From Vulcanimicrobiota bacterium (GTDB taxonomy: Bacteria > Vulcanimicrobiota > SpSt-956 > JAKJGF01): a stretch of DNA of 38,110 nucleotides. This document shows positions 1-33,801 of the stretch, piece by piece. Under the pieces are notes generated by a model, which searched no databases, was not told the DNA's origin, and saw only the letters and a program-made list of their open reading frames with translations. A program made the translations under genes and the position numbers. Position 1 is the first letter of the stretch; every line of letters begins with the position of its first letter. The DNA lies in NCBI GenBank assembly GCA_040217695.1, contig JBEHWO010000021.1:1-38110 (forward strand), read 5' to 3'.

Positions 1-240
1 CATTCTCACGTTATACTCAAGAACCTTTGACTGATCTTTTCTGGAATTTCTGGCCTCACTCCAGGATGCACTGTGAATAACTGCATCAAAACTGTGTTTC
101 TTTAGATATTTAGCCAATTCTTCTTCTTTAAGCAAATCAAGTTCTCTACTTGACGGGCTGTACAACAGATATTTTTCTTTTAGCTGTTCCTGTAAATTTC
201 TGCCTATAAAGCCGGTAACACCTGTAAGTAAAATTTTCAT
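1..240 (-). CDS. NAD-dependent epimerase/dehydratase (extended SDR) family protein, N-terminal fragment running off the window edge
   Basis: The reverse complement of 181-240 reads ATG AAA ATT TTA CTT ACA GGT GTT ACC GGC TTT ATA GGC = MKILLTGVTGFIGRNLQEQL. This is the GxxGxxG Rossmann N-terminus typical of NDP-sugar epimerases/reductases. A GAGGTG RBS lies about 10 nt upstream. The HAD gene stop (TAG, 255-257) is 15 nt upstream, so this gene continues the minus-strand operon. It is truncated at the window edge and therefore absent from the ORF track. Confidence 0.55.
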   Translation of the reverse strand, partial: MKILLTGVTGFIGRNLQEQLKEKYLLYSPSSRELDLLKEEELAKYLKKHSFDAVIHSASWSEARNSRKDQSKVLEYNVRM

Positions 241-254
241 AGTTTTACACACCT

Positions 255-833
255 CTAAAATGTCGATAACACATGAAGAATATCTTTTAAATTTTTTTTC
301 TCACTGTTCCACGGTTGCGGAATTAAGAGGGGTTTTACACCTGCCTCGCCGGCAGATTTTATATTTTCTTCACTGTCATCTATGAATATATCTACATTGC
401 CAATGTTCTTGAGAAAATCTCCTTTATTCTTATCATAGACAGGTAAATCTTCTCCTTCCCTTTTTGAAGGTACAAAGTGAAATGTCCTTATCCATTTGCC
501 GAAATGTGTAAAAAGCCATGATGAAGATATATGGCTTGCTTTTATCGGAACGGCAGTAAGAGCTATATGCCTGTATTCATGACCGTATGTTAAAAACCAT
601 TCCATTATGTCAGGAACAGGGGATATTAAATCCTTATATTTATTTAATCTGAAACTGTCAAGGCTTTCCAGATATTCTGTAAGAGATATGCCCAGCACCC
701 TGTGGGGAGGATTTTCTGTTAAATCTTCATATGTAACAGTACATTTATTATGTTCCGGAAGCCATTCTTCATTGAACCATATTCTCATAAGGTCATTCAT
801 TACGTCATCTATATCCCAGGCTATTGTTTTCAT
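255..833 (-). CDS. HAD-superfamily hydrolase (NT5C-like 5'-nucleotidase / sugar-phosphatase fold)
   Basis: The track ORF is 255..914. The start is more likely the internal Met (MKTIAWDIDDVMNDL), whose ATG at 831-833 overlaps the TGA stop (830-832) of the upstream TPP-enzyme gene as ATGA. This places HAD motif I (DxDxV, here WDIDDVM) at the extreme N-terminus as expected. A C-terminal FIDDSEEN motif resembles HAD motif IV. Confidence 0.5.
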   Translation of the reverse strand: MKTIAWDIDDVMNDLMRIWFNEEWLPEHNKCTVTYEDLTENPPHRVLGISLTEYLESLDSFRLNKYKDLISPVPDIMEWFLTYGHEYRHIALTAVPIKASHISSSWLFTHFGKWIRTFHFVPSKREGEDLPVYDKNKGDFLKNIGNVDIFIDDSEENIKSAGEAGVKPLLIPQPWNSEKKNLKDILHVLSTF

Positions 834-2647
834 ATAAGTTCCGAATTCTTGCTTTCTTCCAGCGGCGGAATAATCATATGTTTGAAAAATTCTTCTCTCG
901 GCAGAAAAGGCCATAAATCTTCCATAGGTAAAGTAACCATTGAACCGTCCGGTTTTACATGGGATTTTACCCGCGGCATAGTAGGCTGAAGAGGGGAGAC
1001 CATGACTTCACATATACATGGGCCTTCTGTCTCAATTACTTTTTTTACTTTTTTTTCTATATGGCTGTGATTTTCGATTTTTTCATTTTTTATAGAATAC
1101 GCTTCTGCTACTCTGAGTATATCGGGTAAGGTAAGGTTACTGCCTTTCTCGCTCCCTGTATACCGTCCGTCGAAATAGTTTCTCTGTGTTGCCATTATGG
1201 AACTGTACCCTCCGTTATTTATAATAAAAAACTTGATTGGGAGGTTTAATCTTCTGATGGTTTCCAGTTCCTGTATATTCAATTGAAACCCGCCGTCTCC
1301 GTTAATGCAGATAGTTCTTTTCCCTCCTGCAATACATGCTCCTATAGCGGCGGGCAATCCGAAACCCATAGCACCAAGTCCGGGATTAAATATAATTCTC
1401 TGACCTTTTTTTACACGAAAGGATTGCATGAATATTTCGACACCTGAACCGGAACTGCCGGGAATAATTATGTCTTCTGTCCTCAATAAGTCAGAGAGAA
1501 CATCCATAAGAACATAGAGGTTTACATGTTCTTTCTCTTCTCTGTACTCAGGCAGTATAACAGGATAATCTTTGTTCCATGCCCTGCATGTATTAAGCCA
1601 TGACATGTCCCTTCCCTTTACCAGATGGATATTATTCAGAAATTCTCTGATAAAATCCCCTCCGTCTGCTACCAGGGGAAGAGCAACTGGTATCTGTAAT
1701 TTGTTTATTTCTTTTTCATCAATATCAACTATAATTTTTTTTGAACTTCTTGCGAAATGTCTGTGATTATAAGCAGTCTGTCCGAAATCCAGCCTTGCCC
1801 CTATGGATAAAAAGAAATCGGCATTCTGCTGTATAAAATTTGCCCCTCTCTGTCCTATGGCTCCCGGTCTCCCTGCAAACAGAGGATGGTCGTTATCTAA
1901 AAGATCTATAATCTTCCATGTCGTTAAAACAGGAATTTTTAATATATCTATAAGTCTGAGAAATTCTTCTTCTGCTTTTGCCAGTCTTATGCCGTTACCT
2001 GCCAGAATGACAGGTCTTTCCGAATTGTTTAAAAGTTCTATTATTTTTATAATCTTTTCTTTTAAATGATTTTTCTTTTTTTCATCTTTTTCCGTAGGTA
2101 TAAAGGTTTTTAATGTATGTTCATCTACTATGGACGCCTGCACATCAAGTGGTATATCAAGCCATACAGGTCCAGGCCTTCCTGTTTTTGCAATATAAAG
2201 AGCTTTTTCAAGATGATATCTGATTTCTGTCGATTCAGTAACAGTTACGGCATATTTTGTAATAGATTTTACCATAGAGATTATATCGACTTCCTGAACG
2301 CCCATCTGTCTTACAGAGTATTTTGCCAGAAGATCAGATGTTTTGACCTGTCCCGATATAATCAGAAGAGGAGTTGAGTCGATCCATGCTCCTGCCACTC
2401 CCGTAATTGCATTTGTCCCTCCCGGCCCTGTGGTAACAAGAGCCACACCGGCATTATTGGTATACTGTCCATATGCATCTGCGGCTATTGCACAGGCCTG
2501 TTCATGAAGATTACATACATATTCAATTTTTTTACACTTTCCGACAGAATCAACAAGGTGCATACATCCCCCGCCTGATAGCATAAATATATGTTTTACA
2601 CCTGAAGCTGCTATAAAATTTATTATATAATCTGATAATTTAATCAT
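830..2647 (-). CDS. Thiamine-diphosphate-dependent enzyme, acetolactate-synthase-large-subunit-like (YerE-like candidate sugar-branching enzyme)
   Basis: 605 aa. The N-terminal ThDP Pyr domain is present (HIFMLSGGGCMHL...TTGPGGTNAITGVAGAW). The C-terminal ThDP-binding motif GDG-x24-NN is present (INGDGGFQLNIQELETIRRLNLPIKFFIINNGGY). An AAGGAGA RBS lies 10 nt upstream of ATG 2647. Its location in a CDP-3,6-dideoxyhexose cluster parallels YerE of yersiniose biosynthesis. The family assignment is from motif memory, not a search. Confidence 0.75.
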   Translation of the reverse strand: MIKLSDYIINFIAASGVKHIFMLSGGGCMHLVDSVGKCKKIEYVCNLHEQACAIAADAYGQYTNNAGVALVTTGPGGTNAITGVAGAWIDSTPLLIISGQVKTSDLLAKYSVRQMGVQEVDIISMVKSITKYAVTVTESTEIRYHLEKALYIAKTGRPGPVWLDIPLDVQASIVDEHTLKTFIPTEKDEKKKNHLKEKIIKIIELLNNSERPVILAGNGIRLAKAEEEFLRLIDILKIPVLTTWKIIDLLDNDHPLFAGRPGAIGQRGANFIQQNADFFLSIGARLDFGQTAYNHRHFARSSKKIIVDIDEKEINKLQIPVALPLVADGGDFIREFLNNIHLVKGRDMSWLNTCRAWNKDYPVILPEYREEKEHVNLYVLMDVLSDLLRTEDIIIPGSSGSGVEIFMQSFRVKKGQRIIFNPGLGAMGFGLPAAIGACIAGGKRTICINGDGGFQLNIQELETIRRLNLPIKFFIINNGGYSSIMATQRNYFDGRYTGSEKGSNLTLPDILRVAEAYSIKNEKIENHSHIEKKVKKVIETEGPCICEVMVSPLQPTMPRVKSHVKPDGSMVTLPMEDLWPFLPREEFFKHMIIPPLEESKNSELI

Positions 2648-2706
2648 CTGTAAAATGTCTCCTTACTGGTAACGGGTAATTGCCCACTGTTTTGAATTGC
2701 TTACCT

Positions 2707-4227
2707 CTACAAAATTTCCTTTGTCAGATAAACTTCTGTTTTTCTTTCTCTGTTTTCCATAATAGTCTGATCATCATAAAAGGAATCATTTTTGTAGTGA
2801 GTGGTTGATATTTCTTCAAAAACAGCCCCGTTAACAGTGCTGAAACTGTGGGACATATTCCTTTCCACAAGGATCATATCACCTCTGCCATAGGTTTTTA
2901 CGGAACCTCCAAGGTCTAGATTGAGGTCTCCGTATATTACATTAAAAGTTTCTTCTTTTAATTTATGACTATGAGACGGGTGTTTCTGGCCGGGAAGCAA
3001 TACAATAATTTTCTTGCAGTATTCTCTGTTTATACAATCAATAATAGTTGCGCCGAATTCTTTAAAGGTGTCTATACCATAGTGATGTGATAATTCACAT
3101 TTTGTATTGAAAGGAATTACTGTATTACTTTTCTTAAGAAGTTCTATGACTTTAGTTACATAGCCCTGTACCATCACTCTGATATCCTTTAATATTATAT
3201 TATCTTCCATGACAGGGCCATAAGTGTCTATATCTGCAGTGGCATAATAATACCTGTATTTGGACACGTCATTTGCCTGCAGTTGACCGACTCTGCATGG
3301 GATTGCATAAAAACTGTTGTTTCTATCCAGAATTTCTCCTTTTTTAACAGGCTTACTGACAAATATCCCTCTTCTCAGGGATTTTAAATCACCGATTTCT
3401 TTTTCTGTAAATTTATATCTTTCATTTTTAATACCACACATATCGAAAGCTTCTTTTGCAGATTTTAACCAGTTATAAACCTGCTGCGGATTTGCCGAAT
3501 AGGCATTCAGTTTAATATCTTCCGTTTCCACACCTATGTGTTTTTCAAATATTACTGCTCCCTTGGCAACAGCCAGTTTTATGGAAGTGTAGTTTCCCGG
3601 GTCTTCATGAGTTGAATAACCTATAGTTAAATCTTTATATCTATTTTTAAAAAGATCAATTTGATTTAACTGTAGATTTTCCGGCTTTGTCGGATATTCA
3701 GCAACACAGTGCATAATGGATAGATCTGCTTTTCTGTTCAGGAAAAAACTCACTACATTATCTATATCTTTTAATTCTATGCCTGCAGTGGAAGCTATAA
3801 CAGGTTTCTTCGCTTTTACAATTCTTTCCAGCAGAGGCCAGTCTGTAAAGGAACAACTCCCTATTTTGATTATATCATAATTGTGTTTTTCTATTAAATT
3901 TACAGATTCTTCATCAAAAGGCGTACATATTGCCTGAAAATGCAGTTTCTCCAGTTCGTCTCTTAATATTTTAAAATCTTCTTCTTTCAGCCGTGTCTGG
4001 GAAAATCTTTTTACATATTTAAATTCATTACTGTCTTTAAAATCAGGATGGATAAAAGTATCCAGATGTCTGTACTGAAGTTTAAAGGCAAAGTCAAAAT
4101 CAAAATTTTCAGATACTTTCTTTATTTCTCTTATAATGTTCAGGCCATGTTCCACACTGCCCTGATGATTATTTGCCATTTCAAAAATAAAAAGCGGTTT
4201 TCTTTCTCTCATAAAATGAAACCTCAT
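2707..4227 (-). CDS. NeuB/SpsE-family PEP-dependent sugar synthase (N-acetylneuraminate-synthase-like) fused to a C-terminal cupin domain
   Basis: 506 aa. The N-terminus LFIFEMANNHQGS matches the NeuB TIM-barrel start. A SAF-like segment (RRGIFVSKPVKKGEIL) lies near residue 300. About 180 extra C-terminal residues carry cupin motif 1, G-x5-HxH-x3-E-x6-G (GQKHPSHSHKLKEETFNVIYG), and a second conserved cupin segment (GDMILVERNMSHSF). Confidence 0.6.
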   Translation of the reverse strand: MRFHFMRERKPLFIFEMANNHQGSVEHGLNIIREIKKVSENFDFDFAFKLQYRHLDTFIHPDFKDSNEFKYVKRFSQTRLKEEDFKILRDELEKLHFQAICTPFDEESVNLIEKHNYDIIKIGSCSFTDWPLLERIVKAKKPVIASTAGIELKDIDNVVSFFLNRKADLSIMHCVAEYPTKPENLQLNQIDLFKNRYKDLTIGYSTHEDPGNYTSIKLAVAKGAVIFEKHIGVETEDIKLNAYSANPQQVYNWLKSAKEAFDMCGIKNERYKFTEKEIGDLKSLRRGIFVSKPVKKGEILDRNNSFYAIPCRVGQLQANDVSKYRYYYATADIDTYGPVMEDNIILKDIRVMVQGYVTKVIELLKKSNTVIPFNTKCELSHHYGIDTFKEFGATIIDCINREYCKKIIVLLPGQKHPSHSHKLKEETFNVIYGDLNLDLGGSVKTYGRGDMILVERNMSHSFSTVNGAVFEEISTTHYKNDSFYDDQTIMENRERKTEVYLTKEIL

Positions 4228-4238
4228 TTCATTTAAAT

Positions 4239-5177
4239 TTAATCAAAATTTATTCTTTCTTTTTCGATAACAAGGGGTCTTTTGCAAACCTGAGTATAAA
4301 TAGCTCCCACATATTCACCTATTATTCCGATAAAAAACAGTTGAACTGAAGTGAAGAAAAACATGCCTATAAGAAGAGGAGCAAATCCGATAGGATAGTT
4401 TGGCCACATAACAAGTTTAAGTATAAAATAAATAATAGAAAGAAATAAGCTCAGCAGTGCCATAGGAAAACTTATTAATGTAGCTATTCTGAGAGGAACT
4501 TTGGAATTGCTTGTAATGCCCAGCATGGCTGTATCATATAAAGCATAAAAATTATTTTTTGTTGCTCCTTTTTTACGCTGTTGTTGAATATATCCTATTT
4601 CCTTTATACTATAACCTATTTCACATATAAGACCTCTGAAATATGGATAGGGATCATCAATTGTTCTGAGAACATCAATAATTTTTCTGTCATACAAACC
4701 AAAGCCGGTGAAATTTTTAATTAATTCTGTATCTGATAAACTTGTAACAATATTATAATATAATCTCCTTGTGGCAAACATTATTTTCGATTCTTTACTG
4801 TTTGTCTTTACACCTATAACAATTTTATAACCCTTTTCCCATTCTGCTATGAATTCTTTTATTAATTCCGGCGGTTCCTGAAAATCACATGGTATGGCAA
4901 TTACAGCATCTCCTTTTGTCTGTAAATATGCATGAAATGGTGAACGCATATGGCCGAAATTTCTGGTGTTTACAATAATTTTTACATGTTTGTCGTTTTC
5001 TGCAACTTTTTTCAGCCGTGCAACAGTATTATCCTTTGATGCATTGTCAATAAAGATATTTTCATAATCGTAATCTTTTACTTCGTCAAAAATCTTCTTT
5101 ATTGCAATACACATGTCTTCAACGTTTTCTTCTTCATTATAACAGGGAATAACAACTGAGATTAATTTTTTATTCAT
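4239..5177 (-). CDS. Glycosyltransferase family 2, polyprenyl-phosphate sugar transferase (DPM1/ArnC/GtrB-like)
   Basis: 312 aa. The N-terminal VVIPCYNEEENV...IDNASKDNT motif indicates a GT-A fold with a DxD-type region (PCDFQEP). Two C-terminal hydrophobic helices (LISFPMALLSLFLSIIYFILKL and LLIGMFFFTSVQLFFIGIIGEYV) are typical of ArnC/GtrB-type bactoprenol-phosphate glycosyltransferases. Confidence 0.75.
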   Translation of the reverse strand: MNKKLISVVIPCYNEEENVEDMCIAIKKIFDEVKDYDYENIFIDNASKDNTVARLKKVAENDKHVKIIVNTRNFGHMRSPFHAYLQTKGDAVIAIPCDFQEPPELIKEFIAEWEKGYKIVIGVKTNSKESKIMFATRRLYYNIVTSLSDTELIKNFTGFGLYDRKIIDVLRTIDDPYPYFRGLICEIGYSIKEIGYIQQQRKKGATKNNFYALYDTAMLGITSNSKVPLRIATLISFPMALLSLFLSIIYFILKLVMWPNYPIGFAPLLIGMFFFTSVQLFFIGIIGEYVGAIYTQVCKRPLVIEKERINFD

Positions 5178-5205
5178 AACTTACTTTTTCCTGAAAAATC
5201 CGGGA

Positions 5206-6276
5206 TTATTTGATAAAATCATCCTGTGTAAATACTTCACAGCAAGGCACAGGAACAGGTTTACCATATATCTTTTTTGCTTCATAATCATTAATAAATT
5301 CTCTATCCTCTGCAATAAGACATGTATCAATATATTTCCCAAAAAATTTAATTTTCATACCTCTTTCTATAATATCTTTTAACGGTTCCTTGAAGAAATT
5401 TCCGAGAGAAACATGTATGTATGGGCATGGCATAATATCGCCGTATTTCGTGATGGATACCATTCTTTTAACGGCTATACAGCCTAAATTGAGACCGTAT
5501 GCCGGTGTCAGATGGGTGAATACATTATATTTTTTCTCCAGTTCCTTTATATAATCCATATCATCTTTTGTAATAAGTACATCATAGTTTCCTTCCCATT
5601 CTCCAACCGGTTTGGCGTATGTTACAAATACACCTACTTCTCTTTGTCTGGCAAATTCCAGAAATTCAATAAATTCCTCCGATCTTACTCTCTGTTTTGT
5701 AACTACTGTGGCCAGTATAATGTTTAATCCTGCTTCCAAAGAAGCATCAATAGCCCTTACTGCTCTTTCATGAGAGCCCTTCTTTCGCCTGAAATCATCG
5801 TGCTCGGAAGCAGAAAGGCTGTCAAGGCTTAACTGAATCTTATCGAGTCCTATAGCTTTTAAATGTTTTGCTTTTTTTATATCCAGAAACCATACGTTTG
5901 TATCGGATGTTATATAAAATTTCTGCGGATCTATATCTTTAACTATATCATCAAAATCAGGAAATATCAGTGGTTCTCCCCCTGTAATTACAATATGGCC
6001 GAGTCCCATTTCGTCAGCCTGCCTTGAAAGTTCTTTTACATCTTCAATAGTGAAGAATCTATCTGACCTGTTAGCCTGCAATCTGGTTATGTCACAGTGT
6101 TGACAGCGAAAATTGCAGGTATAATCATATTGAAATTGAAGAATAGCTATGCTTTCTCCTCTTTTTACTTTCTCATCATATTTCATAATTTTTTCATAAA
6201 CATAGGGTTTTTCTCTTTTTACCTGGTTTCTTTTTTCATTTTCTTCCGGTTTTATCAGATCTTTTGACATAATCAT
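5206..6276 (-). CDS. Radical SAM enzyme with Cys-rich C-terminal (SPASM/twitch-like) region
   Basis: 356 aa. The canonical CxxxCxxC motif is present (CNFRCQHC), followed by a glycine-rich SAM-binding stretch (IVITGGEPL). Additional C-terminal cysteines (CIAV...MPCPYIH...PVPCCEVF) suggest an auxiliary Fe-S domain. The substrate is unknown. The gene is embedded in the sugar operon. Confidence 0.7.
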   Translation of the reverse strand: MIMSKDLIKPEENEKRNQVKREKPYVYEKIMKYDEKVKRGESIAILQFQYDYTCNFRCQHCDITRLQANRSDRFFTIEDVKELSRQADEMGLGHIVITGGEPLIFPDFDDIVKDIDPQKFYITSDTNVWFLDIKKAKHLKAIGLDKIQLSLDSLSASEHDDFRRKKGSHERAVRAIDASLEAGLNIILATVVTKQRVRSEEFIEFLEFARQREVGVFVTYAKPVGEWEGNYDVLITKDDMDYIKELEKKYNVFTHLTPAYGLNLGCIAVKRMVSITKYGDIMPCPYIHVSLGNFFKEPLKDIIERGMKIKFFGKYIDTCLIAEDREFINDYEAKKIYGKPVPVPCCEVFTQDDFIK

Positions 6277-6392
6277 GAGTCTCCTTAATAAATGGTAAGG
6301 GCATTTTTAATAATAATGATAGAAAACATTTTGCGTCATAGTAACAGGCTATGGCATGAGCGTTTTTTGCTCTTATTGCATTCTCCAGTCCT

Positions 6393-7547
6393 TTAAATTA
6401 TTTCCAGACCAGAGTCTCTCAATATTGCAATATTTATATCTCTGTGAAATTTCTGCCGTATAATTTTGGCTACTTCATCGGAATAACTGGCTGCCATAAC
6501 AATAATGGCATCTACCGGATCAGAATTAAGTAATTCCGGAGGTACTATAGGAATATGTGTGGCAGGCGTATATTTCCCCTGTTTAAATGGCGCAGAGTCA
6601 ATCACATATTTTATTTTGCCTGCCAGCTCAGTTAATGAAATAACTGCAAGTGCCTGATGTCCGGCACCCCATACGGCCACTTTATCAAAAGGGCGGATAT
6701 ATTCTTCTATATGCTCTTTAAGTTTTTTCTGATGTTTATCAAAATCTGACAGAAATGTCTTGCTCCTTTTTCTTACTGTAGCAGAAATTATGTAATCATA
6801 CCACTCTTCATTACACTGAATGACTTCAAAGCCATTCAGGCATAATGTTGTATTTAAAGTTTCCATGGTAAAATAAAATAAATGATCACATATAAATTCA
6901 GAAAAAAGTTTCTTTCTCAAAATCATATCGAAATTCGGTACCTCTACGAGCCCTGTGGCACCATCAGAGAGATTGTTATATATTCCTCTCAGGGTGGAAT
7001 TCGGCTCGGGGAGATGTTCAAGAAAATTTAATATAAAGAATGCATCAAAAGGGGCATAATCCAATCTGTAATTACTATCATCAATAAACCCTTTCGAGAC
7101 CATGAGTCCATTTTTGATACAGTATTTTACAGCTTCTTCCGAATACTCAATACCATAGGCATCTACACCGGTTTCTTTCATAAGCGAGAGATATTCTCCA
7201 TGGCCACAACCTATTTCTACAATTTTTCTTACAGAAAATTTTTTTATAAAATCCTTAAATTGTTTTCTTCGAAAGTTTTTCATTTCCTCAGAAAAAGCGG
7301 CTGCTCTTATAACTTCTTTATAATAAGGAACAGGTTCATTACTTAACTGTACAAGCCCGCAACCTGAACACTGGTAGACTTCCATATCGATTCCTTTATC
7401 GTGTGCAAGTGATGATTCATCAGGCAAAAATTGAGCGGCTCCGGGCATATTTCTGTATTGCAGCAACGGTTCTTCGAAGAATATACGGTTACATATTCTG
7501 CATTTTTTTACTGACATAAAATAACACTTTCTATGAAAGGTAATCAA
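6393..7547 (-). CDS. NDP-hexose C-methyltransferase (TylC3/NovU-like) with N-terminal zinc ribbon
   Basis: 384 aa. An N-terminal 4-Cys zinc ribbon is present (CRICNR...CSGCGLVQ). A class I SAM-binding motif is present (VEIGCGHGEY). The C-terminal domain resembles the C-methyltransferase C-terminal domain of sugar 3-C-methyltransferases. The assignment is from family architecture recalled from memory. Confidence 0.65.
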   Translation of the reverse strand: MITFHRKCYFMSVKKCRICNRIFFEEPLLQYRNMPGAAQFLPDESSLAHDKGIDMEVYQCSGCGLVQLSNEPVPYYKEVIRAAAFSEEMKNFRRKQFKDFIKKFSVRKIVEIGCGHGEYLSLMKETGVDAYGIEYSEEAVKYCIKNGLMVSKGFIDDSNYRLDYAPFDAFFILNFLEHLPEPNSTLRGIYNNLSDGATGLVEVPNFDMILRKKLFSEFICDHLFYFTMETLNTTLCLNGFEVIQCNEEWYDYIISATVRKRSKTFLSDFDKHQKKLKEHIEEYIRPFDKVAVWGAGHQALAVISLTELAGKIKYVIDSAPFKQGKYTPATHIPIVPPELLNSDPVDAIIVMAASYSDEVAKIIRQKFHRDINIAILRDSGLEII

Positions 7548-7583
7548 TCAAATTATAATTTAAAATGTCGGTAAAGTCAAATT

Positions 7584-8078
7584 TTATATATAATTTCTAT
7601 ATATTTCGTGGACTTTTATCAGATTTTCAGGACATCTGTCATGCCACATGAGATATCCCTGATCTTTGTTTGATAAACCGGTATTTTGAGGAATGTAATT
7701 ACAGGAAATATTACATTTATATAATATCGATATAAAATGTCCTCTCGTGGTCAGGTTTTTATCTATAATCTGGTTTATTGCAAGTGGTACCGGGTCGAAG
7801 TCAACTGAAGCACCGATTTCTGTTTCTGAAACCTTTATTATTCTTTTTTCCAGAGTCTCCCTGTATCGTACAATACCTCCCGGAACATGCCAGCCTTCAC
7901 CTGCAAATCGATCATTCCTCCAGGCCAGAAGGGTTCGTCCCTTTTCGTCTTTTATCAGCAGATCTACGTTTATCATAGGAGTAACACGGCTGATGAAAAA
8001 AAACACTTCTTCAGGAAGTCCATATGAAGGGTTTGTTATATGGCTGTCCAGTATTTCTATTGCTTTATGTATATTCAT
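7584..8078 (-). CDS. NUDIX hydrolase (GDP-mannose mannosyl hydrolase / WcaH-like size and context)
   Basis: 164 aa. A Nudix-box-like stretch is present (GGIVRYRETLEKRIIKVSETEIG), roughly matching Gx5Ex7REUxEExGU. The ATG at 8076-8078 overlaps the upstream gene's TGA stop (8075-8077) as ATGA, indicating translational coupling. Confidence 0.55.
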   Translation of the reverse strand: MNIHKAIEILDSHITNPSYGLPEEVFFFISRVTPMINVDLLIKDEKGRTLLAWRNDRFAGEGWHVPGGIVRYRETLEKRIIKVSETEIGASVDFDPVPLAINQIIDKNLTTRGHFISILYKCNISCNYIPQNTGLSNKDQGYLMWHDRCPENLIKVHEIYRNYI

Positions 8079-9535
8079 TTCTTTTTATTCACAAAAATTT
8101 TGCATGTTGAAATTATAAATTCAATCATTTCTTCATTCATTCCGGGATAAACTCCCAACCAGAACGTATCATTCATTATCTTATCAGTGATGGTCAGTTC
8201 TCCGGGGACTCTGTATTCATCTTTTTTCATTTCATCAAAACATGGATGTTTTGTCAGATTGCCAGAAAAGAGCATTCTTGTCTGTATGTTGTTTTTTTCC
8301 AGATATGTCACTATTTCATCTCTTGTAAAAGCTGCATTTTCTCTTACTGTCAGTAAAAATCCGAACCAGCTCGGATCGGATTTTTCTGTAGCTTCCGGCA
8401 ATATAAATTTATCAGATAAATCGTTCAGACCTTCTCTCAATAATTTCCAGTTTTTCTTTCTTGCATGAATAAAATCAGGCAGTTTTTTCAGTTGGGCACA
8501 TCCTATGGATGCCTGAAGATCTGTTATTTTCAGATTATAACCGAAATGAGAGAAAACATATTTATGATCATATCCGAAGGGTAGTTTCCCGAATTGCTGG
8601 CTGAAGCGGTTTTTGCAGGTATTGTCATGGCCTGACATGCACCAGCAGTCTCTGCCCCAGTCACGAAAAGATTCTACTAGTCTTTTTAATTGTGTGTCCT
8701 GTGTATATACTGCTCCTCCTTCTCCCATGGTCATATGATGGGGAGGGTAGAAGCTTGATGTTCCCAGATGCCCTATTGTACCTGTATATTTCCATTCCCT
8801 GTTATATAAATATTTTGAACCAAGTGAATCACAGTTATCTTCTATAAGCCATAGATTGTTTCTGTCACAGAAATCTTTTACTCTCTGTAAATCAAAGGGA
8901 TTGCCCATAGTATGGGCAAGAAATACAGCTTTTGTTTTTTCAGAGAGTGCTTTTTCCAGTTTACTTACATCTATATTGTAAGAGGGGAGACTTATGTCTG
9001 CAAAAACAGGTATTGCTCCGTACTGTATTATCGGTGTTACGGTAGTAGGGAATCCTGCTGCCACTGTTATTACTTCGTCACCTTTTTTTATTCTTCTCGT
9101 GCCAAGCTCTTTTGATGTAAGAGCCATAAAGGCAAGCAGGTTTGCCGATGAACCTGAATTGGTTAGAGAACAGTGTTTTACTCCCATAAATTCGGCAAAT
9201 TCATGTTCGAATTTTTCTGCATATCTTCCTGTAGTAAGCCAGAAATCCAGAGATGAATCTATGAGGTTTATAATTTCTTTTTCGTCAAAAATTCTGCCTC
9301 CGTAAGAAATCCTGTCTCCCGGCTTAAAGGGTTCGTTTTTTTTATGTTTTACTTCATAGTGTTTCACTGCTGCTTCTACTGCCAGTTCTCTTAAGATTTT
9401 CTCCCGGCCGTCTTTTGACTCCTGTTCAATACAGGGAAGAATAATGACTTCGACTTTATTTCCCATTTCAGGAGGTATGTTAATATTTATACAGCCGTCC
9501 TGAGGTACTTCTCTTACAAGTTTTAAAGCATGCAT
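8075..9535 (-). CDS. ddhC: CDP-6-deoxy-D-xylo-4-hexulose 3-dehydrase (E1; RfbH/DdhC/AscC), PMP- and [2Fe-2S]-dependent
   Basis: 486 aa, DegT/DnrJ/EryC1 fold. The E1-specific signatures are present. The LDFWLTTGRY motif is present. The PLP-lysine is replaced by His-His (SFYPPHHMTMGEGG). The iron-sulfur cysteine cluster is present (RDWGRDCWCMSGHDNTCKNRF). The C-terminal EATEKSDPSWFGF motif is present. An AAAGGA RBS lies about 9 nt upstream of ATG 9535. The 486-aa length exceeds the roughly 437-aa RfbH I recall for Salmonella by about 45 N-terminal residues. A start at Met24 (9466) would give 463 aa but lacks the RBS that supports 9535. Confidence 0.85.
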   Translation of the reverse strand: MHALKLVREVPQDGCININIPPEMGNKVEVIILPCIEQESKDGREKILRELAVEAAVKHYEVKHKKNEPFKPGDRISYGGRIFDEKEIINLIDSSLDFWLTTGRYAEKFEHEFAEFMGVKHCSLTNSGSSANLLAFMALTSKELGTRRIKKGDEVITVAAGFPTTVTPIIQYGAIPVFADISLPSYNIDVSKLEKALSEKTKAVFLAHTMGNPFDLQRVKDFCDRNNLWLIEDNCDSLGSKYLYNREWKYTGTIGHLGTSSFYPPHHMTMGEGGAVYTQDTQLKRLVESFRDWGRDCWCMSGHDNTCKNRFSQQFGKLPFGYDHKYVFSHFGYNLKITDLQASIGCAQLKKLPDFIHARKKNWKLLREGLNDLSDKFILPEATEKSDPSWFGFLLTVRENAAFTRDEIVTYLEKNNIQTRMLFSGNLTKHPCFDEMKKDEYRVPGELTITDKIMNDTFWLGVYPGMNEEMIEFIISTCKIFVNKKK

Positions 9536-9558
9536 ATTATACTATTCCTTTCTTCAAT

Positions 9559-10977
9559 TTAAGCTCTCCGCTCTTCATGATATTCTGCGTCAATGTTAAT
9601 ATCCCATAAATTATAAGGACTTCCCGGCAGGTTCAGATAATTTCTTGCTGCCATAAGCCCGCTTAAAAGAGAATGGTCCTGATTATTATATTTATACATT
9701 CCGCCTCTGCCTGCAGGTTGAATATTTTCAAATTTATTTATCTCTTTTTGCAATCTATTATAGGGTTCCTTAAAGCCAAGGTAATAAGTGGGATAACTTT
9801 CTGTTTCTCTTATAACCCATGAATGTTCCACAGAATCTTCACATATGAGTTTTAATGTTACCAGCTCTTCCAGAGCCAGTTTTTTTAGTTCTTCATCAGT
9901 TTTATTCCAGAGCTCATCCTCTTTAAAGACAAAATATTCTACGCTCAGGGCGCTTTTCTTTTTATAATTAACCATAGCTTTTGAAAAATTACTATAATTG
10001 GCCAGTCTAGCCATGGACACTTCTGGAGAGTGTATATATATCCACTGATCCGGAAAAAGTTTCTCTCTGTCTGACAGCAAGTTTACCGTAATATGATCTC
10101 TGTAATACAAAGCCTGTACGGCTTTTTTTATCTCTTCCTCTTCCAGAGGGGGATTGAGTAATTTGAAGAAATGGGGCAGAGGTATAGTGCTGAAAAAATA
10201 AGAACCTTTTATGTTTATTTTTTCGCCACTCCTCAGTATATCAACTGATTCTATAGTATAATCCCTCCGGTTAAGAGACAGAACTTCTGTTTGAAGCATA
10301 ATATCAGCCTGTTTCATAATGTTTTCATACATAGTTTCATACATCTGTCCTGCACCGTTAGCAGGGTAATTAAATTCTTCAACAAGGGTCTTTACTTTAC
10401 CTTTACCTATACTAAGAGCATTTTTCAGGATTTCTATAATATCAAGGCCTTTTATTCTCTGGGCTGCCCACTCCGCTCCTATCTGATTGCATGGTATACC
10501 CCAGACTTTTTCCGTATAGGTTTTAAAAAAAGTTTTGTAAAGTTTCCATCCGAATTTCTGTACTATCCAGTCTTCAAAGGTTTCAGGATTGCTGTTCTTG
10601 TTTGTTCTGGCATAGACATAGGAGCAGAAGGCCTGAAATAATTCTATTGCGCCCAGTTTAAAAGCTACATCGAATGGTTTTATGGGATAATTAAAAAATT
10701 TGTTTTTATAGTAGATTCTTGTCAATCTTTTTACGGGGATAAATTCTTCTCCGAGGGTTTTATGCCACAGTTCATTGATTTCTTTATTTTTTGTAAAAAA
10801 ACGATGGGGGCCTATATCAAATTTTGTGCCGTCAAAGACTTCTGTTCTGGATAAGCCACCTATATATTTATTACGATCTATTATCAGGATATTATTTACT
10901 CCGTGCCGTGCCAGTTCCGTGGCGGCACCTAGACCTGCAGGGCCTGCACCCAGTATAATACAGTGATATTCTGTCAT
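9559..10977 (-). CDS. FAD/NAD(P)-binding oxidoreductase (amine-oxidase / protoporphyrinogen-oxidase-like fold)
   Basis: The track ORF is 9559..11049. The preferred start is Met25 (MTEYHCIILGAGPAGLGAATELA), with ATG at 10975-10977. This puts the GxGxxG dinucleotide-binding motif at the N-terminus and removes a 55-nt overlap with the upstream gene, whose stop is at 10995. A further motif reads IDRNKYIGGLSRTE. Confidence 0.6.
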   Translation of the reverse strand: MTEYHCIILGAGPAGLGAATELARHGVNNILIIDRNKYIGGLSRTEVFDGTKFDIGPHRFFTKNKEINELWHKTLGEEFIPVKRLTRIYYKNKFFNYPIKPFDVAFKLGAIELFQAFCSYVYARTNKNSNPETFEDWIVQKFGWKLYKTFFKTYTEKVWGIPCNQIGAEWAAQRIKGLDIIEILKNALSIGKGKVKTLVEEFNYPANGAGQMYETMYENIMKQADIMLQTEVLSLNRRDYTIESVDILRSGEKINIKGSYFFSTIPLPHFFKLLNPPLEEEEIKKAVQALYYRDHITVNLLSDREKLFPDQWIYIHSPEVSMARLANYSNFSKAMVNYKKKSALSVEYFVFKEDELWNKTDEELKKLALEELVTLKLICEDSVEHSWVIRETESYPTYYLGFKEPYNRLQKEINKFENIQPAGRGGMYKYNNQDHSLLSGLMAARNYLNLPGSPYNLWDINIDAEYHEERRA

Positions 10978-10994
10978 AATGTTTATTATTCTTC

Positions 10995-12083
10995 TTAATG
11001 AAATCTCTGTTCCGGTGAACCGGTATATGCCCTTATCTGTTTCAGGCATATGTCTCTTAAATCCCCGGATTTTTTATAGACTTTTGTCCATTCAATGATT
11101 TTGTCTATAGCTTCCTCCAGATTCCAGCGGGGATACCACCCGAGTCGAGCTTTTACTTTTGAACAGTCCAGTTTAAGATAATGAGCTTCATGAGGATGTC
11201 TCCCTTTATCTATTTCGTAGTCTGCTCCATAACCCCATTTCTCACATATTTTCCTTACAATCCACTCTACGGGTTTTGCATCTTTATCTTCAGGCCCGAA
11301 ATTCCATCCCTCCGAGTATTTAGAGCCATTTTTATAAAGTTTTTCTGCCAGTAGTATATAACCGCTCAGAGGTTCCAGCACATGCTGCCATGGCCTTATA
11401 GAGCCAGGATTTCTTATGATTATTTTCTCTTTCTTCAGAATTGATCTTATACAGTCAGGTATCAGTCTGTCTTTAGCCCAGTCTCCTCCGCCTATGACAT
11501 TACCTGATCTTGCCGAAGCCAGTCCTACTTTATGAAACTTATAATCTTTTTGATTGAAAAAGGAATTTCTGTAGGAAACTGTTACAAGTTCCGAACAGGA
11601 CTTGCTGTTTGAATAGGGGTCATAACCGCATAGAGGGTCATGCTCTCTGTAACCCCAGAGCCATTCTTTATTTTCATAGCATTTATCTGTAGTCACATTT
11701 ATGACTGCCCTCACAGTCTTACAGGCTCTTACCGCTTCCAGCATATTTACTGTGCCCATGACGTTTATTTCATAGGTCTCAACCGGATTTATGTAGGATT
11801 CTCTCACGATTGGTTGTGCTGCCATGTGTATAACTATATCGGGCTCTGATCCAATCATTTTTTTCTTCAATGTATCTCTGTCTCTTATATCAGAGATTAT
11901 GGAATTAACGAGTTTATCAATCCGGCATAGATTGAATAAAGCCGGTTCTGTCGGAGGATTGAGAGCATATCCTGTTATATCTGCGCCAAGGGAAGAAAGC
12001 CAGAGACAAAGCCATGAACCTTTAAAACCTGTATGGCCTGTTAAGAAAATTTTCTTTTTTTTCCAGAAGTTTTTGTTTATCAT
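10995..12083 (-). CDS. ddhB: CDP-glucose 4,6-dehydratase (RfbG/DdhB)
   Basis: 362 aa. The N-terminus FWKKKKIFLTGHTGFKGSWLCLWLSSLGADITGYALNPPTEPALF matches the characteristic RfbG start. The extended-SDR YxxxK region is present. ATG at 12081-12083. Confidence 0.8.
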   Translation of the reverse strand: MINKNFWKKKKIFLTGHTGFKGSWLCLWLSSLGADITGYALNPPTEPALFNLCRIDKLVNSIISDIRDRDTLKKKMIGSEPDIVIHMAAQPIVRESYINPVETYEINVMGTVNMLEAVRACKTVRAVINVTTDKCYENKEWLWGYREHDPLCGYDPYSNSKSCSELVTVSYRNSFFNQKDYKFHKVGLASARSGNVIGGGDWAKDRLIPDCIRSILKKEKIIIRNPGSIRPWQHVLEPLSGYILLAEKLYKNGSKYSEGWNFGPEDKDAKPVEWIVRKICEKWGYGADYEIDKGRHPHEAHYLKLDCSKVKARLGWYPRWNLEEAIDKIIEWTKVYKKSGDLRDICLKQIRAYTGSPEQRFH

Positions 12084-12146: not shown

Positions 12147-15100
12147 TTAATACTGCAGCCCTGCAAGCTTTTTATAATATTCATACCTTCGCTTTGCATC
12201 TTTTTCTGCTGCTTCAAAGAGGCTGTCAGCTTCGCCGGGGCAGATACGTTTCAGGGTCTGGTATCTGTTTTCATTTTTTAGATATGTGCTGAAAGCTTCT
12301 TTTGGTTCTTTGGATTCGAATATGAGAGGATTTTTGCCCTCTGCGGAAAGTCTGGGATCGTAACGATAAAGCGGCCAGTAACCGCATTCTACGGCAATTC
12401 TCTGTTCTTCCTGTGGTTTACTCATATTAATGCCATGATTGATACAGGGCGAATAGGCAATAACAAGTGATGGCCCGTTATAGGATTCCGCCTCAAGTAA
12501 TGCCTTGAGTGTCTGAGGTTTGTTTGCTCCCATAGAAATAGAAGCCACATATACATAACCATAGGCCATTGCCATAAGCCCTAAATCTTTTTTGCCTGTA
12601 CGCTTTCCTGCTGTGGCAAATTTTGCCGTCGATGCAAGAGGCGTTGCTTTGGAAGACTGTCCGCCTGTATTTGAATATACTTCCGTATCAAGGACCAGTA
12701 CATTTACATTCTCATTACAGGCCAGGACATGATCCAGTCCGCCGTAACCTATATCATAAGCCCATCCGTCTCCGCCGAAAGCCCAGATACTCTTGTCAAC
12801 GAAATAATCCTGAAGTTCTATAACCTTCTTTATAAAAGGAAGACTTTCGCTTTTTGCAGATTTTAAAGCTTCAGGAAGTAATGCTTTTATCTTTTCAGCA
12901 TTGTCTTTTGCTTCAGTATTTACAGATTTCCATAATTCTTTACCCTTCTTTAAAACTTCTTCAAGGGCAGGAGTTGTTCCGATTTCCAGTAATTTATCCA
13001 CATTAAAGGCAAGCTGTTTTCTGTTTGCATTTACAGCAAGACGGAAACCGAAGCCATATTCTGCATTGTCTTCAAAGAGAGAATTTGCCCATGCAGGACC
13101 TCTACCGGATTTTGTTACAGCATACGGAATGGTCGGGAAGGTTCCTCCGTAAATGGAAGAACAACCTGTTGCGTTGGCCACAATCATTCTGTCTCCGAAT
13201 AACTGTGTTACAAGTTTGACATAGGGAGTTTCACCGCATCCGGCACATGCTCCGGAAAATTCAAAGAGTGGCTGCAGGAACTGACTGCCTTTAAGTGTAC
13301 CGGGATCAATACCGTCAACTACATTGTCAGGGAGCCTGTCAAAGAATTCTGCATTCTTTGCTTCTCCTTTTTCTCTTTCTTCCGAAAGAAGTTTCAGCTC
13401 AAGAGCTTTTGTCTTTGCAGGACATGTATTGACACAGGAACCGCATCCCACGCAGTCTTCTATATATATCTGAACTTTGTATTTCAGATCTCTGGTGTTT
13501 TTGGTGTTAGATTTCAGTGTATTGAACGTTTTGGGAGCATCTTTCAGATCTGCCGGATCAATCTGTTTTGCCCTTATGGTAGCATGAGGACAGACATAGG
13601 AACACTGGTTGCACTGTATACAGTTTTCTGCTATCCAGTGAGGCACGAAAGGTGCAACACCTCTTTTTTCCAGCCTGGTTGTGCCGGTAGGAGTATATCC
13701 GTCAAGAGGCATTTTGGATACCGGTATATCGTCTCCCTTGAGTCTCATAATCGGTTCTATCACATCATGGGCAAAAGCTATGGCATCATCAGGGATTAAT
13801 TTTGGTGCTTTTGCGGATTTTGTAATAGTTCCGGGAACTTTAACCTGAACAAGGGCTTCTGATGTTTTATCCACACAGTCCCAGTTCATTTTTACAATAT
13901 TTTCACCTTTTTTGCTGAAGGTTTTCTTGATGGCACCTTTTACAAGGTCTATGGCTTCTTTCTCATCCAGAACGCCTGAAATCTTGAAGAAGGCAGCCTG
14001 CATAACAGTGCTGATACGGTTGCCGAGTCCTACTTCTTCTGCAATCTTCAGGGCATCAATATTATAGAATTTAAGTTTTTTATCTATAATGGTTTTCTGC
14101 AGATCTTCCGTCAGACGGTCAAATACTTCTTCTGATTTCCATGGGGAATTGAGAAGGAATGTTCCTCCATCAACAATACCTTCCAGAAGGTCATATCTTC
14201 CTATATAGGCAGGATTATGGCATGCTACAAAATCGACTTCTTTAAGTAAATAGGTAGACTGTATTGGTTCTTTACCGAAACGGAGATGTGATACTGTAAT
14301 GCCTCCTGATTTCTTTGAATCATAGGAGAAATAGGCCTGACCGAACATATCTGTATGATCGCAGATAATTTTTATGGAGTTTTTATTGGCACTCACAGTT
14401 CCGTCTGAACCGAGACCCCAGAATTTACATCTTACTATGCCTTTCTGTTCTGCAGAGATTTCTTCTCTTATCTTTACAGATCTGTGTGTTACATCATCTG
14501 TAATACCTACTGTAAAGTCATGGAAACATTCATTGTCGAGATGATCGTATACTGCTTTTACCATAGTCGGTGTAAATTCTTTTGAAGAAAGACCGTATCG
14601 GCCTCCTATGATAACAAGGTTTTTATCTGAGAGGGCAGTTTTTACATCCATATAGAGAGGTTCTCCTATGGAACCGGGTTCTTTTGTTCTGTCAAGGACT
14701 GCTATTTTCTTTACACTTTCCGGTATGGCTTTCTTAAGAGCTTCTACGGAGAATGGTCTGTAGAGTCTGACTTTTATGGCACCGACCTTTTCTCCTTTTT
14801 TAGTGAGATAATTTACACATTCTTCAATGGCTTCACAGCCGCTGCCCATGGCAATAATTATCTTTTCTGCATCTTTTGCTCCTATATAATCAAAGAGATG
14901 ATACTGGCGGCCAAATTTTTCCGCTACTTTATCCATATATTCCTGAACTATGGCAGGTGTAACTTCATAATATTTATTGCTTGTTTCTCTTCCCTGGAAA
15001 TAAACGTCGGGATTCTGTGCGCCTGTTTTTGCATAGGGTTTGTCAGGTCTCAATGCTCTGTCACGGAATTCCAGTATATAATCCATCTCTAAAAGATCTT

Positions 15101-15677
15101 TTATATCTTTATATTCCGGCACATTAATCTTCATAATCTCATGAGATGTTCTGAAACCGTCAAAGAAGTTCAGAAATGGCACTCTTGATTTAAGAGTGGC
15201 AAGATGTGACACAATGGCAAGATCCAGTGTTTCCTGAACAGAACCTGCTGCCATTAAAGCAAAGCCTGTACCTCTTGCTGCCATAACATCAGAATGATCT
15301 CCGAATATGGACAGTGATTGACATGCAAGAGAACGGGCAGATACGTGAAATACTGTGGGAAGCATTTCTCCTGCGATTTTAAACATATTGGGGAACATAA
15401 GTAACAGTCCCTGTGATGCTGTATAGGTTGTAGTCATGGCGCCTGCGCTGAGGGAACCATGTACTGCTCCTGCTGCTCCTCCTTCTGACTGCATCTGAAC
15501 GACCTTTAACACCTGATCGAACATATTTTTTCTGCCCTGGGCAGCCCATTCGTCTGCCAGTTCGCCCATCACGGATGACGGTGTAATCGGATATATTGCT
15601 GCCACTTCACTGAATGCATAGGCAACATAACTGGCTGCAGTATTACCGTCAAAGGGCTCCATTTTTTGTTTAACCAT
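12147..15677 (-). CDS. nifJ: Pyruvate:ferredoxin (flavodoxin) oxidoreductase, single-polypeptide type
   Basis: 1176 aa. The N-terminus MVKQKMEPFDGNTAASYVAYAFSEVAAIYPITPSS is the classic PFOR start. Two ferredoxin-type Cys clusters are present (CIQCNQCSYVCPHA and CVGCGSCVNTCPA). The C-terminal ThDP domain motif is present (GGDGWAYDIGYGGLDH). An AAAGGAG RBS lies upstream. Confidence 0.95.
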   Translation of the reverse strand: MVKQKMEPFDGNTAASYVAYAFSEVAAIYPITPSSVMGELADEWAAQGRKNMFDQVLKVVQMQSEGGAAGAVHGSLSAGAMTTTYTASQGLLLMFPNMFKIAGEMLPTVFHVSARSLACQSLSIFGDHSDVMAARGTGFALMAAGSVQETLDLAIVSHLATLKSRVPFLNFFDGFRTSHEIMKINVPEYKDIKDLLEMDYILEFRDRALRPDKPYAKTGAQNPDVYFQGRETSNKYYEVTPAIVQEYMDKVAEKFGRQYHLFDYIGAKDAEKIIIAMGSGCEAIEECVNYLTKKGEKVGAIKVRLYRPFSVEALKKAIPESVKKIAVLDRTKEPGSIGEPLYMDVKTALSDKNLVIIGGRYGLSSKEFTPTMVKAVYDHLDNECFHDFTVGITDDVTHRSVKIREEISAEQKGIVRCKFWGLGSDGTVSANKNSIKIICDHTDMFGQAYFSYDSKKSGGITVSHLRFGKEPIQSTYLLKEVDFVACHNPAYIGRYDLLEGIVDGGTFLLNSPWKSEEVFDRLTEDLQKTIIDKKLKFYNIDALKIAEEVGLGNRISTVMQAAFFKISGVLDEKEAIDLVKGAIKKTFSKKGENIVKMNWDCVDKTSEALVQVKVPGTITKSAKAPKLIPDDAIAFAHDVIEPIMRLKGDDIPVSKMPLDGYTPTGTTRLEKRGVAPFVPHWIAENCIQCNQCSYVCPHATIRAKQIDPADLKDAPKTFNTLKSNTKNTRDLKYKVQIYIEDCVGCGSCVNTCPAKTKALELKLLSEEREKGEAKNAEFFDRLPDNVVDGIDPGTLKGSQFLQPLFEFSGACAGCGETPYVKLVTQLFGDRMIVANATGCSSIYGGTFPTIPYAVTKSGRGPAWANSLFEDNAEYGFGFRLAVNANRKQLAFNVDKLLEIGTTPALEEVLKKGKELWKSVNTEAKDNAEKIKALLPEALKSAKSESLPFIKKVIELQDYFVDKSIWAFGGDGWAYDIGYGGLDHVLACNENVNVLVLDTEVYSNTGGQSSKATPLASTAKFATAGKRTGKKDLGLMAMAYGYVYVASISMGANKPQTLKALLEAESYNGPSLVIAYSPCINHGINMSKPQEEQRIAVECGYWPLYRYDPRLSAEGKNPLIFESKEPKEAFSTYLKNENRYQTLKRICPGEADSLFEAAEKDAKRRYEYYKKLAGLQY

Positions 15678-33349: not shown

Positions 33350-33787
33350 ATGGCTAAAGAGAAAGGTATCACTTTGATGGATGCCATGATTTCCGTTACA
33401 GTTCTTGCTATTGGATTTTTAATGATTTTAACGGTTATTCCCGGCACAGGAATCTTTATAAAAAATTCTGAAAATAAACTTGTTGCAAAACAGCTTGCTC
33501 AGACTTATCTGGAATTATATTCCAGTCCCCAGCACTGGTCAGAGATAAATACGTCAGGATTTAATATTACAAGAACTGAAACCGTCACTACCACTATAAA
33601 CGGAAGAATTACTTCTATGAACTATACAGTATATGTAACATCTTATCCGTATGCAGGTGCTACTGGTGAACTTTACAATCTGAATGCCAGAGTTACATGG
33701 CAGGAACAGAATCTGGGTAAATCCCTTACTGCAGCAGGTAAGATTAAACAGATAGAACTCGTTACGATTGTTATAAATCCCAATTAG
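33350..33787 (+). CDS. Type IV pilin-like / pseudopilin (minor pilin) protein
   Basis: 145 aa. The N-terminus MAKEKG|ITLMDAMISVTVLAIGFLMIL is a class III (prepilin) signal with Gly at -1 and an acidic Asp at +5, followed by a hydrophobic helix. An AAAGGGGGGGA RBS lies upstream. Confidence 0.6.
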   Translation: MAKEKGITLMDAMISVTVLAIGFLMILTVIPGTGIFIKNSENKLVAKQLAQTYLELYSSPQHWSEINTSGFNITRTETVTTTINGRITSMNYTVYVTSYPYAGATGELYNLNARVTWQEQNLGKSLTAAGKIKQIELVTIVINPN

Positions 33788-33801
33788 AAAAGAGGTGTGT
33801 T

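Follow-up and report, generated by a model that had tools for sequence, protein, structure and literature searches.

A predicted operon for a CDP-activated, acyl-branched 3,6-dideoxyhexose in a Vulcanimicrobiota bacterium, with a NeuB-isomerase fusion and an E1 dehydrase that lacks an E3 gene

Introduction

The pathways to yersiniose, erwiniose, caryophyllose and gastriose each bring together, in one gene cluster, a CDP-glucose 4,6-dehydratase, the 3-dehydrase E1, a YerE-like carboligase and a short-chain dehydrogenase/reductase (SDR). Their gene sets combine DdhA-D with YerE, ErwE, MMAR_2332 or MyGE and with a YerF-type reductase. These four carboligases add decarboxylated C3-C8 2-oxo acids to CDP-4-keto-3,6-dideoxyglucose, after which the YerF-type reductase acts; the hydroxylated 2-oxo acid donors of YerE-like enzymes are made by aldolases, and the R. 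palustris cluster also has an S-adenosylmethionine (SAM) methyltransferase (PMC9306805). More than 200 YerE-like clusters have been predicted in silico (PMC12247030). Here we describe a locus of this kind in a window of 38,110 bp, which is the entire contig JBEHWO010000021.1 of a metagenome-assembled genome of a Vulcanimicrobiota bacterium, an anaerobe known without cultivation. Its positions 1-12083 hold 11 minus-strand genes, and we estimate at roughly 60% the probability that they form an operon whose product is a CDP-activated 3,6-dideoxyhexose of the yersiniose/erwiniose/caryophyllose class, acyl-branched at C4, C-methylated and delivered on polyprenyl phosphate.

Described relatives also exist for individual parts of the locus. 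SpnQ, the E1 homologue of the spinosyn forosamine pathway, is served by ferredoxin or flavodoxin reductase systems of a general kind (PMC8987622). Like the E1 of the window it is a pyridoxamine 5'-phosphate (PMP)/[2Fe-2S] 3-dehydrase without a gene for the reductase E3. It differs in having a dTDP-2,6-dideoxy sugar as its substrate and in coming from an actinomycete, whereas the window E1 is close to the CDP-specific Yersinia enzyme. In C. jejuni HS:41 the flavin-dependent HS41.17, encoded in a ddhA/ddhB cluster, interconverts CDP-fucopyranose and CDP-fucofuranose (PMC12369002), and wbyH is a predicted mutase in Yersinia ddh modules that make paratofuranose (PMC5399914).

Results and Discussion

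The predicted branched-sugar core

The genes are transcribed in the order ddhB, a flavin adenine dinucleotide (FAD) protein, E1, NUDIX, C-methyltransferase, radical SAM/SPASM enzyme, family 2 glycosyltransferase (GT2), NeuB-cupin fusion, thiamine diphosphate (ThDP)-dependent enzyme, HAD-like protein and SDR. They form one dense operon with intergenic gaps of -4 to 116 nt, which is cut at position 1, so that only the initial 80 codons of the SDR lie in the window and the remainder is beyond the contig end. Gene by gene, every gene named in the first-pass annotation was recovered, all of them on the minus strand of this one compact operon. Searches for domains and relatives supported its identifications of ddhB, E1, the TylC3/TcaB9-type C-methyltransferase, the radical SAM/SPASM enzyme, the NUDIX protein, the NeuB-cupin and the polyprenyl-phosphate-type GT2.

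The ThDP enzyme shares the operon with ddhB, E1 and the SDR. It scores 411 bits with JanthE (8RPH), which has been described as a YerE-like enzyme (PMC12188165), and 303 bits with PpYerE (5AHK), against at most 234 bits with acetolactate synthases. It falls below every acetolactate synthase model cutoff, and its translation contains HEQ and GDG motifs. The YerE-type identity suggested for it at first pass agrees with these scores. An exact-sequence look-up of the window ThDP protein returned no match.

As judged by sequence, the core of ddhB, E1, YerE-like enzyme, SDR and C-methyltransferase is a variant of the known scheme for acyl-branched 3,6-dideoxyhexoses. The earlier view that no characterised pathway has this combination of genes was therefore too broad: the core is the yersiniose/erwiniose/caryophyllose scheme (PMC9306805, PMC12247030), and what lacks a characterised counterpart is limited to the added NeuB-cupin, NUDIX and radical SAM genes. 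A full-text literature search, the coverage of which did not extend to the JanthE and YerE-cluster survey papers, gave no account of this gene combination. In comparison with the described pathways the locus is without E3, without ddhA and without a pyruvate aldolase for the donor acid, in place of which it has a fusion of a NeuB-like synthase with a lyxose isomerase-like cupin. It has in addition NUDIX, radical SAM/SPASM, HAD-like and UDP-galactopyranose mutase (UGM)-like genes and a polyprenyl-phosphate GT2.

E1 and its supply of electrons

E1 matches the Yersinia pseudotuberculosis E1 crystal structure 3BCX with 534 bits over residues 48-481. It retains His220, which takes the place of the pyridoxal 5'-phosphate lysine, and the [2Fe-2S] ligands Cys193, Cys251, Cys253 and Cys261. 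The two signatures on which the first reading of this gene was based, HH for the lysine and a cysteine motif, are both present in the translation (PPHHMTMGEGG and RDWGRDCWCMSGHDNTC), and all five positions align to 3BCX. On this sequence evidence the protein is a genuine E1. The full-length match, together with His220 and the four cysteines, means that one-electron donors should be needed, unlike in ColD.

The window has neither a ferredoxin-NADP reductase (FNR)-like gene in its 38,110 bp nor ddhA, its sole nucleotidyltransferase being GlgC. A sister contig (JGI; L116), with 96% nucleotide identity over the whole locus and the same gene order including the FAD gene, continues past the point at which the window is cut. 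There the operon ends with a complete 294-aa RmlD-like SDR, beyond which lie a HAD-IIA phosphatase, DapF, Kup and a beta-helix protein. A further contig (L005), whose NeuB-cupin is 84% identical, has the same ending except for the SDR. Because L116 completes the operon with the SDR alone, ddhA and ddhD are truly missing from the locus, and the absence noted at first pass holds beyond the contig edge. The canonical ddhA-ddhD pair that might have stood just outside the window was looked for through both contigs and not found. GlgC (16002-17282), which lies 4 kb upstream, was considered as a surrogate for ddhA and rejected, as it matches glucose-1-phosphate adenylyltransferase at equivalog level and reaches no more than 31 bits against the cytidylyltransferase model.

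The lack of E3 extends well beyond this locus. No open reading frame (ORF) with the FNR signature was seen in the window, in L116 or in approximately 119 related loci, and no E3-like ORF with the plant-type [2Fe-2S] motif in the same set; two ORFs that do have the latter motif (in L059 and L112) proved to be unrelated proteins. By comparison, ddhA (TIGR02623, above cutoff) was found in 31 of these loci. Two cultured anaerobes among these loci show the same pattern, namely Pelosinus sp. UFO1 with ddhA-ddhB-E1-GtrA-ThDP-SDR-GT2 and Geotalea uraniireducens Rf4 with ddhA-ddhB-E1-SDR-SDR, neither of which has ddhD within 10 kb. Hence E1 without E3 is common in this group of organisms. Since E3 is missing from the related loci, E1 here probably draws its electrons from general ferredoxin or flavodoxin, by analogy with SpnQ, and with a pyruvate:ferredoxin oxidoreductase (PFOR) encoded beside the operon this is the most economical model. 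Across a large group of uncultured and chiefly anaerobic bacteria, systems of E1 without E3 are the norm, which bears on how radical C3-deoxygenation is powered outside the enterobacteria.

The PFOR gene (12147-15677, minus strand) shares the strand of ddhB, from which 63 nt separate it on the upstream side; GlgC is on the opposite strand. This adjacency is kept in all contigs of the window's own lineage (L001-L004 and L116) and not in other lineages. The adjoining PFOR might supply E1 with reduced ferredoxin, or its position may be a coincidence, the evidence being at most circumstantial; as a dedicated electron source for E1 it was rejected, because the adjacency is limited to this lineage.

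The long E1 ORF begins with approximately 36 codons that are homologous to a 71-aa MazE/AbrB-like ORF of L001. The true start is probably at 9466, and the extra N-terminal codons are probably, from this homology, the remnant of a MazE/AbrB-like small gene. In close relatives (P0005, P0006, P0009 and P0020) E1 has an in-frame PemK/MazF-like N-terminal domain of about 95 aa and is preceded by the 71-aa MazE/AbrB-like ORF. The remnant region spans 9430-9535 in the window, and the L001 coordinates are 9805-10020 and 10001-11635. It looks as though a toxin-antitoxin-like pair once occupied the ddhB-E1 junction and part of it has been lost in the window.

The flavoprotein between ddhB and E1

In solved structures the FAD protein finds, by phmmer, full-length eukaryote-type UGMs (E = 4e-24). 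The UGM signature elements align with AfUGM, including the GPH loop, YTEKVWG...R, a second arginine, the YP tyrosine and the C-terminal GR...Y.NNQD. Across 30 family members from many phyla H58, Y154-TEK-W-G160, R174, R324, Y395-P396, Y430, N431/432 and D434 are invariant. The catalytic set of a UGM is thereby complete, with the His loop, the arginine of the mobile loop, the second arginine, two tyrosines that bind the diphosphate and a C-terminal YxNxD motif. The AlphaFold2 (AF2) model (pLDDT 87.8) gave Foldseek matches of which ranks 1-34 were all UGMs (TM 0.79-0.82, E around 1e-31), the next match being protoporphyrinogen oxidase at 1e-26. Neither an iron-sulfur or cysteine cluster motif nor FNR-type FAD/NAD domains were found in the protein, which has the amine-oxidase/UGM fold. 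Its family, NF005548, is annotated as 'hypothetical protein'. HS41.17 and wbyH of Y. pseudotuberculosis are likewise flavin-dependent members of the UGM superfamily in ddhA/ddhB-type CDP-sugar clusters, although HS41.17 is a short bacterial-type UGM of about 376 aa and the FAD protein has a eukaryote-type architecture.

The first-pass annotation had proposed that this amine-oxidase-fold protein stands in for E3 (DdhD/AscD) and feeds electrons to the [2Fe-2S]/PMP centre of E1. The gene does adjoin both ddhB and E1, at distances of 17 and 23 nt, UGM-like genes also occur inside the ddh/YerE clusters of two other lineages (L057 and L100), and eukaryote-type UGMs bind NAD(P)H (entries 5VWT and 5VWU). 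Against this stand the UGM fold, the full set of mutase catalytic residues and the missing iron-sulfur motif, a UGM-type character being the very finding that the annotation had itself named as counting against a partnership with E1. Nor does the gene behave as a partner of E1 in other genomes. In relatives with an E1 of 81-85% identity, PFOR, ddhB and E1 are arranged in the same way, and the 71-aa ORF alone stands where the FAD gene would be. Among the 85 related loci found by way of the NeuB-cupin, no more than 2 have a member of the family, whereas E3 is absent from all of them, and just one of 31 genomic homologues lies near E1. The recurrent neighbours of these homologues are not E1 and instead comprise SDR epimerase/dehydratases, GT2, GtrA and PMT-like GT-C. 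We consider a role as E3 substitute highly unlikely. Judged by its sequence and model, the FAD protein is a UGM-type enzyme and not an electron donor, and the tempting but wrong idea of a new flavoprotein partner for E1 can be set aside. Its gene is probably a lineage-specific accessory, coding for a putative mutase that contracts a nucleotide-sugar pyranose to the furanose.

The NeuB-cupin fusion and its neighbourhood

The NeuB domain shares the TIM-barrel PEP-condensing fold (PEP, phosphoenolpyruvate) of the NeuB, PseI and LegI synthases and of 3G8R, a structural genomics entry from Chromobacterium violaceum. It scores 390 bits with 3G8R, about 65 bits with true NeuB, and well below the equivalog cutoffs of TIGR03569 (132 against 400 bits) and TIGR03586 (131 against 340 bits). 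It retains E25, K129, S132 and the metal ligands H215 and H236 of true NeuB, has Ser where NeuB has E134 and is without R314, which binds ManNAc. The AF2 model of the cupin (pLDDT 92.9) matches free-sugar D-lyxose/mannose isomerases; its best structural matches, over the full length and with TM 0.72, are D-lyxose isomerases, followed by other free-sugar isomerases and phosphomannose isomerases. The window fusion thus differs from NeuB, PseI and LegI in its cupin, and also in being tied genomically to a ThDP enzyme instead of a CMP-synthetase.

The fusion is found in Thermotogota, Bacillota, Omnitrophota, Patescibacteria, Spirochaetota and other phyla. We counted its neighbours in the 22 long loci, those with 6 kb or more to either side. 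Of these, 21 have the ThDP gene, 17 ddhA, 15 the radical SAM/SPASM gene, 14 E1 and 12 NUDIX. The ThDP gene directly adjoins the NeuB-cupin in 46 of 57 loci. The NeuB-isomerase/NUDIX/radical SAM module is widespread, conserved and uncharacterised, and the fusion is the new element of the locus. Among cultured organisms the fusion is carried by Tepiditoga spiralis and Marinitoga, a YerE-like gene being confirmed only in the Tepiditoga locus. Pelosinus sp. UFO1 has a simple YerE-type cluster that lacks the fusion. This locus (L117; AP018712.1, 834598-856115), from a cultured member of the Thermotogota, is a single run that includes ddhA, the NeuB-cupin and the ThDP gene together with an FkbM methyltransferase, four radical SAM genes, an iron-dependent alcohol dehydrogenase, a C-methyltransferase and an SDR. 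Tepiditoga spiralis could serve as an experimental host for the module.

The simplest reading of this neighbourhood is that the fusion does the work that falls to pyruvate aldolases in the clusters for erwiniose, caryophyllose and gastriose. It may condense PEP with a free aldose to a hydroxylated 3-deoxy-2-oxo acid, as a donor for the ThDP branching step; we offer this tentatively and hold it to be less probable than its opposite. The NeuB-lyxose isomerase and YerE-like pair could then explain long hydroxylated side chains of acyl-branched sugars without an aldolase.

Proposed pathway

In the pathway that we propose, homology supports the steps of DdhB, E1, the ThDP enzyme, the SDR, C-methylation and the GT2, and we infer the reduction of E1, the mutase step, the ddhA supply and the NeuB donor. 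CDP-glucose would be supplied by a ddhA elsewhere in the genome and converted by DdhB to CDP-4-keto-6-deoxyglucose, from which E1, reduced by general ferredoxin or flavodoxin with no dedicated E3, would remove the C3 hydroxyl. The YerE-like ThDP enzyme would join the C4 ketone to a decarboxylated 2-oxo acid, the terminal SDR would reduce a ketone and the TcaB9-type enzyme would methylate at carbon beside the 4-keto group. The UGM-type flavoprotein would probably convert a nucleotide-sugar pyranose to a furanose, and the GT2 would move the sugar onto polyprenyl phosphate. On the donor side, the NeuB-lyxose isomerase fusion would condense PEP with a free aldose to give a polyhydroxy 3-deoxy-2-oxo acid for the ThDP enzyme, and the GDP-mannose hydrolase-like NUDIX and the HAD-like protein would possibly assist its production. 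If the YerE-like enzyme were to decarboxylate a Kdn- or Kdo-like acid and attach it to the C4 ketone of the CDP-deoxyhexose, branched sugars of 13-14 carbons would result, an outcome that we put forward as speculative and rather doubtful. Were it true, it would be a widespread uncharacterised route to higher-carbon sugars in many uncultured phyla, with an E1 that has no dedicated reductase.

A number of observations weigh against this pathway or against parts of it. The ddhA of this organism was not located in the window or in the L116 locus. About one third of the NeuB-cupin/ThDP loci are without E1, and the acceptor sugar is therefore not always a 3,6-dideoxy sugar. The proposed coupling of the fusion to the ThDP enzyme comes from gene neighbourhood only. 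The scarcity of CMP-ulosonate-synthetase-like genes, seen in just two related loci, one of them the sole long locus without a ThDP gene, speaks for the coupling, but the probe, which combined a KdsB sequence with a regular expression, was of limited sensitivity, so that the result is to be read as a lead. For the putative mutase, the score with the canonical UGM model TIGR00031 is 57 bits against a cutoff of 304, identity to the CDP-sugar mutase HS41.17 is 23-27% and confined to the motif regions, and the usual neighbours of the family suggest that it may normally act on another nucleotide sugar.

The same genes could be divided between two products. The NUDIX protein would free a sugar from a CDP- or other NDP-sugar, the NeuB-like enzyme with PEP would make a nonulosonic or octulosonic acid that becomes a separate glycan residue, and the ThDP enzyme would use pyruvate in a YerE-like manner. 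The GDP-mannose mannosyl hydrolase-like NUDIX, the NeuB-like synthase with its largely conserved metal and PEP ligands and the HAD-like protein do resemble the Leg, Pse and Kdn pathways, and in L075 the NeuB-cupin adjoins a CMP-ulosonate-synthetase-like gene. We nevertheless find this arrangement unlikely, given that the synthetase is absent from the window, from the complete L116 locus and, by the probe of limited sensitivity, from all other related loci but two, and that the near-obligate adjacency of NeuB-cupin and ThDP gene would be left without an explanation. That adjacency, which is tight even in loci lacking E1, speaks for a further reading, in which the ThDP enzyme acts solely as a decarboxylase of the NeuB product and an aldose is lengthened by two carbons to a 2-deoxy higher sugar, with no connection to the CDP-keto sugar. 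Such a function is most improbable, since the closest characterised relatives, JanthE and PpYerE, are ketone-accepting carboligases and not decarboxylases, and since DdhA in 17 of the 22 long loci places a CDP-sugar in the system nearly always. We therefore favour the CDP-activated, acyl-branched dideoxyhexose over both.

The gene of L075 mentioned above (6696-7409) lies immediately upstream of the NeuB-cupin in a long locus that has no ThDP gene, and suggests two alternative fates for the NeuB product.

The sugar modification itself probably differs between strains, because the window and L116 are separated by a clean indel of 1.7 kb (L116 6132-7888, window approximately 6277-6392). At this place L116 has a gene for a 546-aa B12-binding radical SAM protein, between the C-methyltransferase and the radical SAM/SPASM enzyme, which the window is without.

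Operon genes and flanking regions

The features of the operon are collected in Table 1. For the FAD gene an alternative start at 11049 is also used by gene callers. A promoter and terminator scan of the locus gave a result not above chance.

Table 1. Genes of the predicted operon in the 38,110-bp window, in order of transcription
Feature	Position	Strand	Basis of assignment
ddhB, CDP-glucose 4,6-dehydratase	10995..12083	-	TIGR02622 equivalog, 510 bits (cutoff 278)
UGM-fold flavoprotein, NF005548/PRK07208 family, putative nucleotide-sugar pyranose/furanose mutase, 472 aa	9559..10977	-	NF005548, 536 bits (cutoff 389)
E1 (ddhC/rfbH), PMP/[2Fe-2S] CDP-4-keto-6-deoxyglucose 3-dehydrase	8075..9535 (probable start 9466)	-	NF011936 RfbH, 734 bits (cutoff 423)
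NUDIX, GDP-mannose mannosyl hydrolase-like	7584..8078	-	Pfam NUDIX
Sugar C-methyltransferase, TcaB9/KijD1/TylC3 type	6393..7517	-	Pfam Methyltransf_13, Methyltransf_23, Methyltransf_14
Radical SAM/SPASM enzyme	5206..6276	-	Pfam Radical_SAM, Fer4_12, SPASM
Putative GT2 polyprenyl-phosphate glycosyltransferase, GtrB/ArnC/PgfS type	4239..5177	-	GT2 domain and two C-terminal hydrophobic segments
NeuB-like PEP-condensing synthase fused to D-lyxose-isomerase-like cupin	2707..4227	-	Pfam NeuB, Cupin_2
YerE-like ThDP-dependent enzyme, predicted carboligase	830..2647	-	Three ThDP domains; best solved relatives JanthE and PpYerE
HAD-like protein	255..833	-	Motifs alone
RmlD-like SDR, 5' end, candidate YerF-type reductase, cut by contig end	1..240	-	Pfam Epimerase, RmlD_sub_bind

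The NUDIX protein, which is kept in 32 related loci, has the GDP-mannose mannosyl hydrolases 1RYA and 2GT4 as its best solved relatives (E = 3e-8) and scores 45 bits with NF011963, below the cutoff. GDP-mannose mannosyl hydrolases release free sugar. The C-methyltransferase has the zinc-finger, methyltransferase and C-terminal domains of the TylC3/TcaB9 type, its best solved relatives being TcaB9, KijD1 and D-mycarose 3-C-methyltransferase (E = 1e-16). The radical SAM/SPASM enzyme has BlsE and MoaA as its best solved relatives and is kept in 34 related loci. In the GT2 an N-terminal GT2 domain is followed by hydrophobic segments at residues 230-258 and 263-287, and the scores with the PgfS (195 against 500 bits) and ArnC (126 against 529 bits) models are both below cutoff. 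The HAD-like protein gave no Pfam or Protein Data Bank (PDB) match; its DxDDV and DD motifs are kept in a family of 12 members.

Away from the operon, an 819-aa protein (21337-23796, plus strand) matches the eukaryotic major vault protein in its shoulder (PF11978, E = 4e-27) and repeat domains (PF17795), and a vault-protein-like match is unusual in a bacterium. Finally, a group of genes at 33350-37784, with N-terminal prepilin-type methylation motifs, accompanied by two DUF7305 proteins, looks from its sequences like a pseudopilin or type IV pilus-like cluster.

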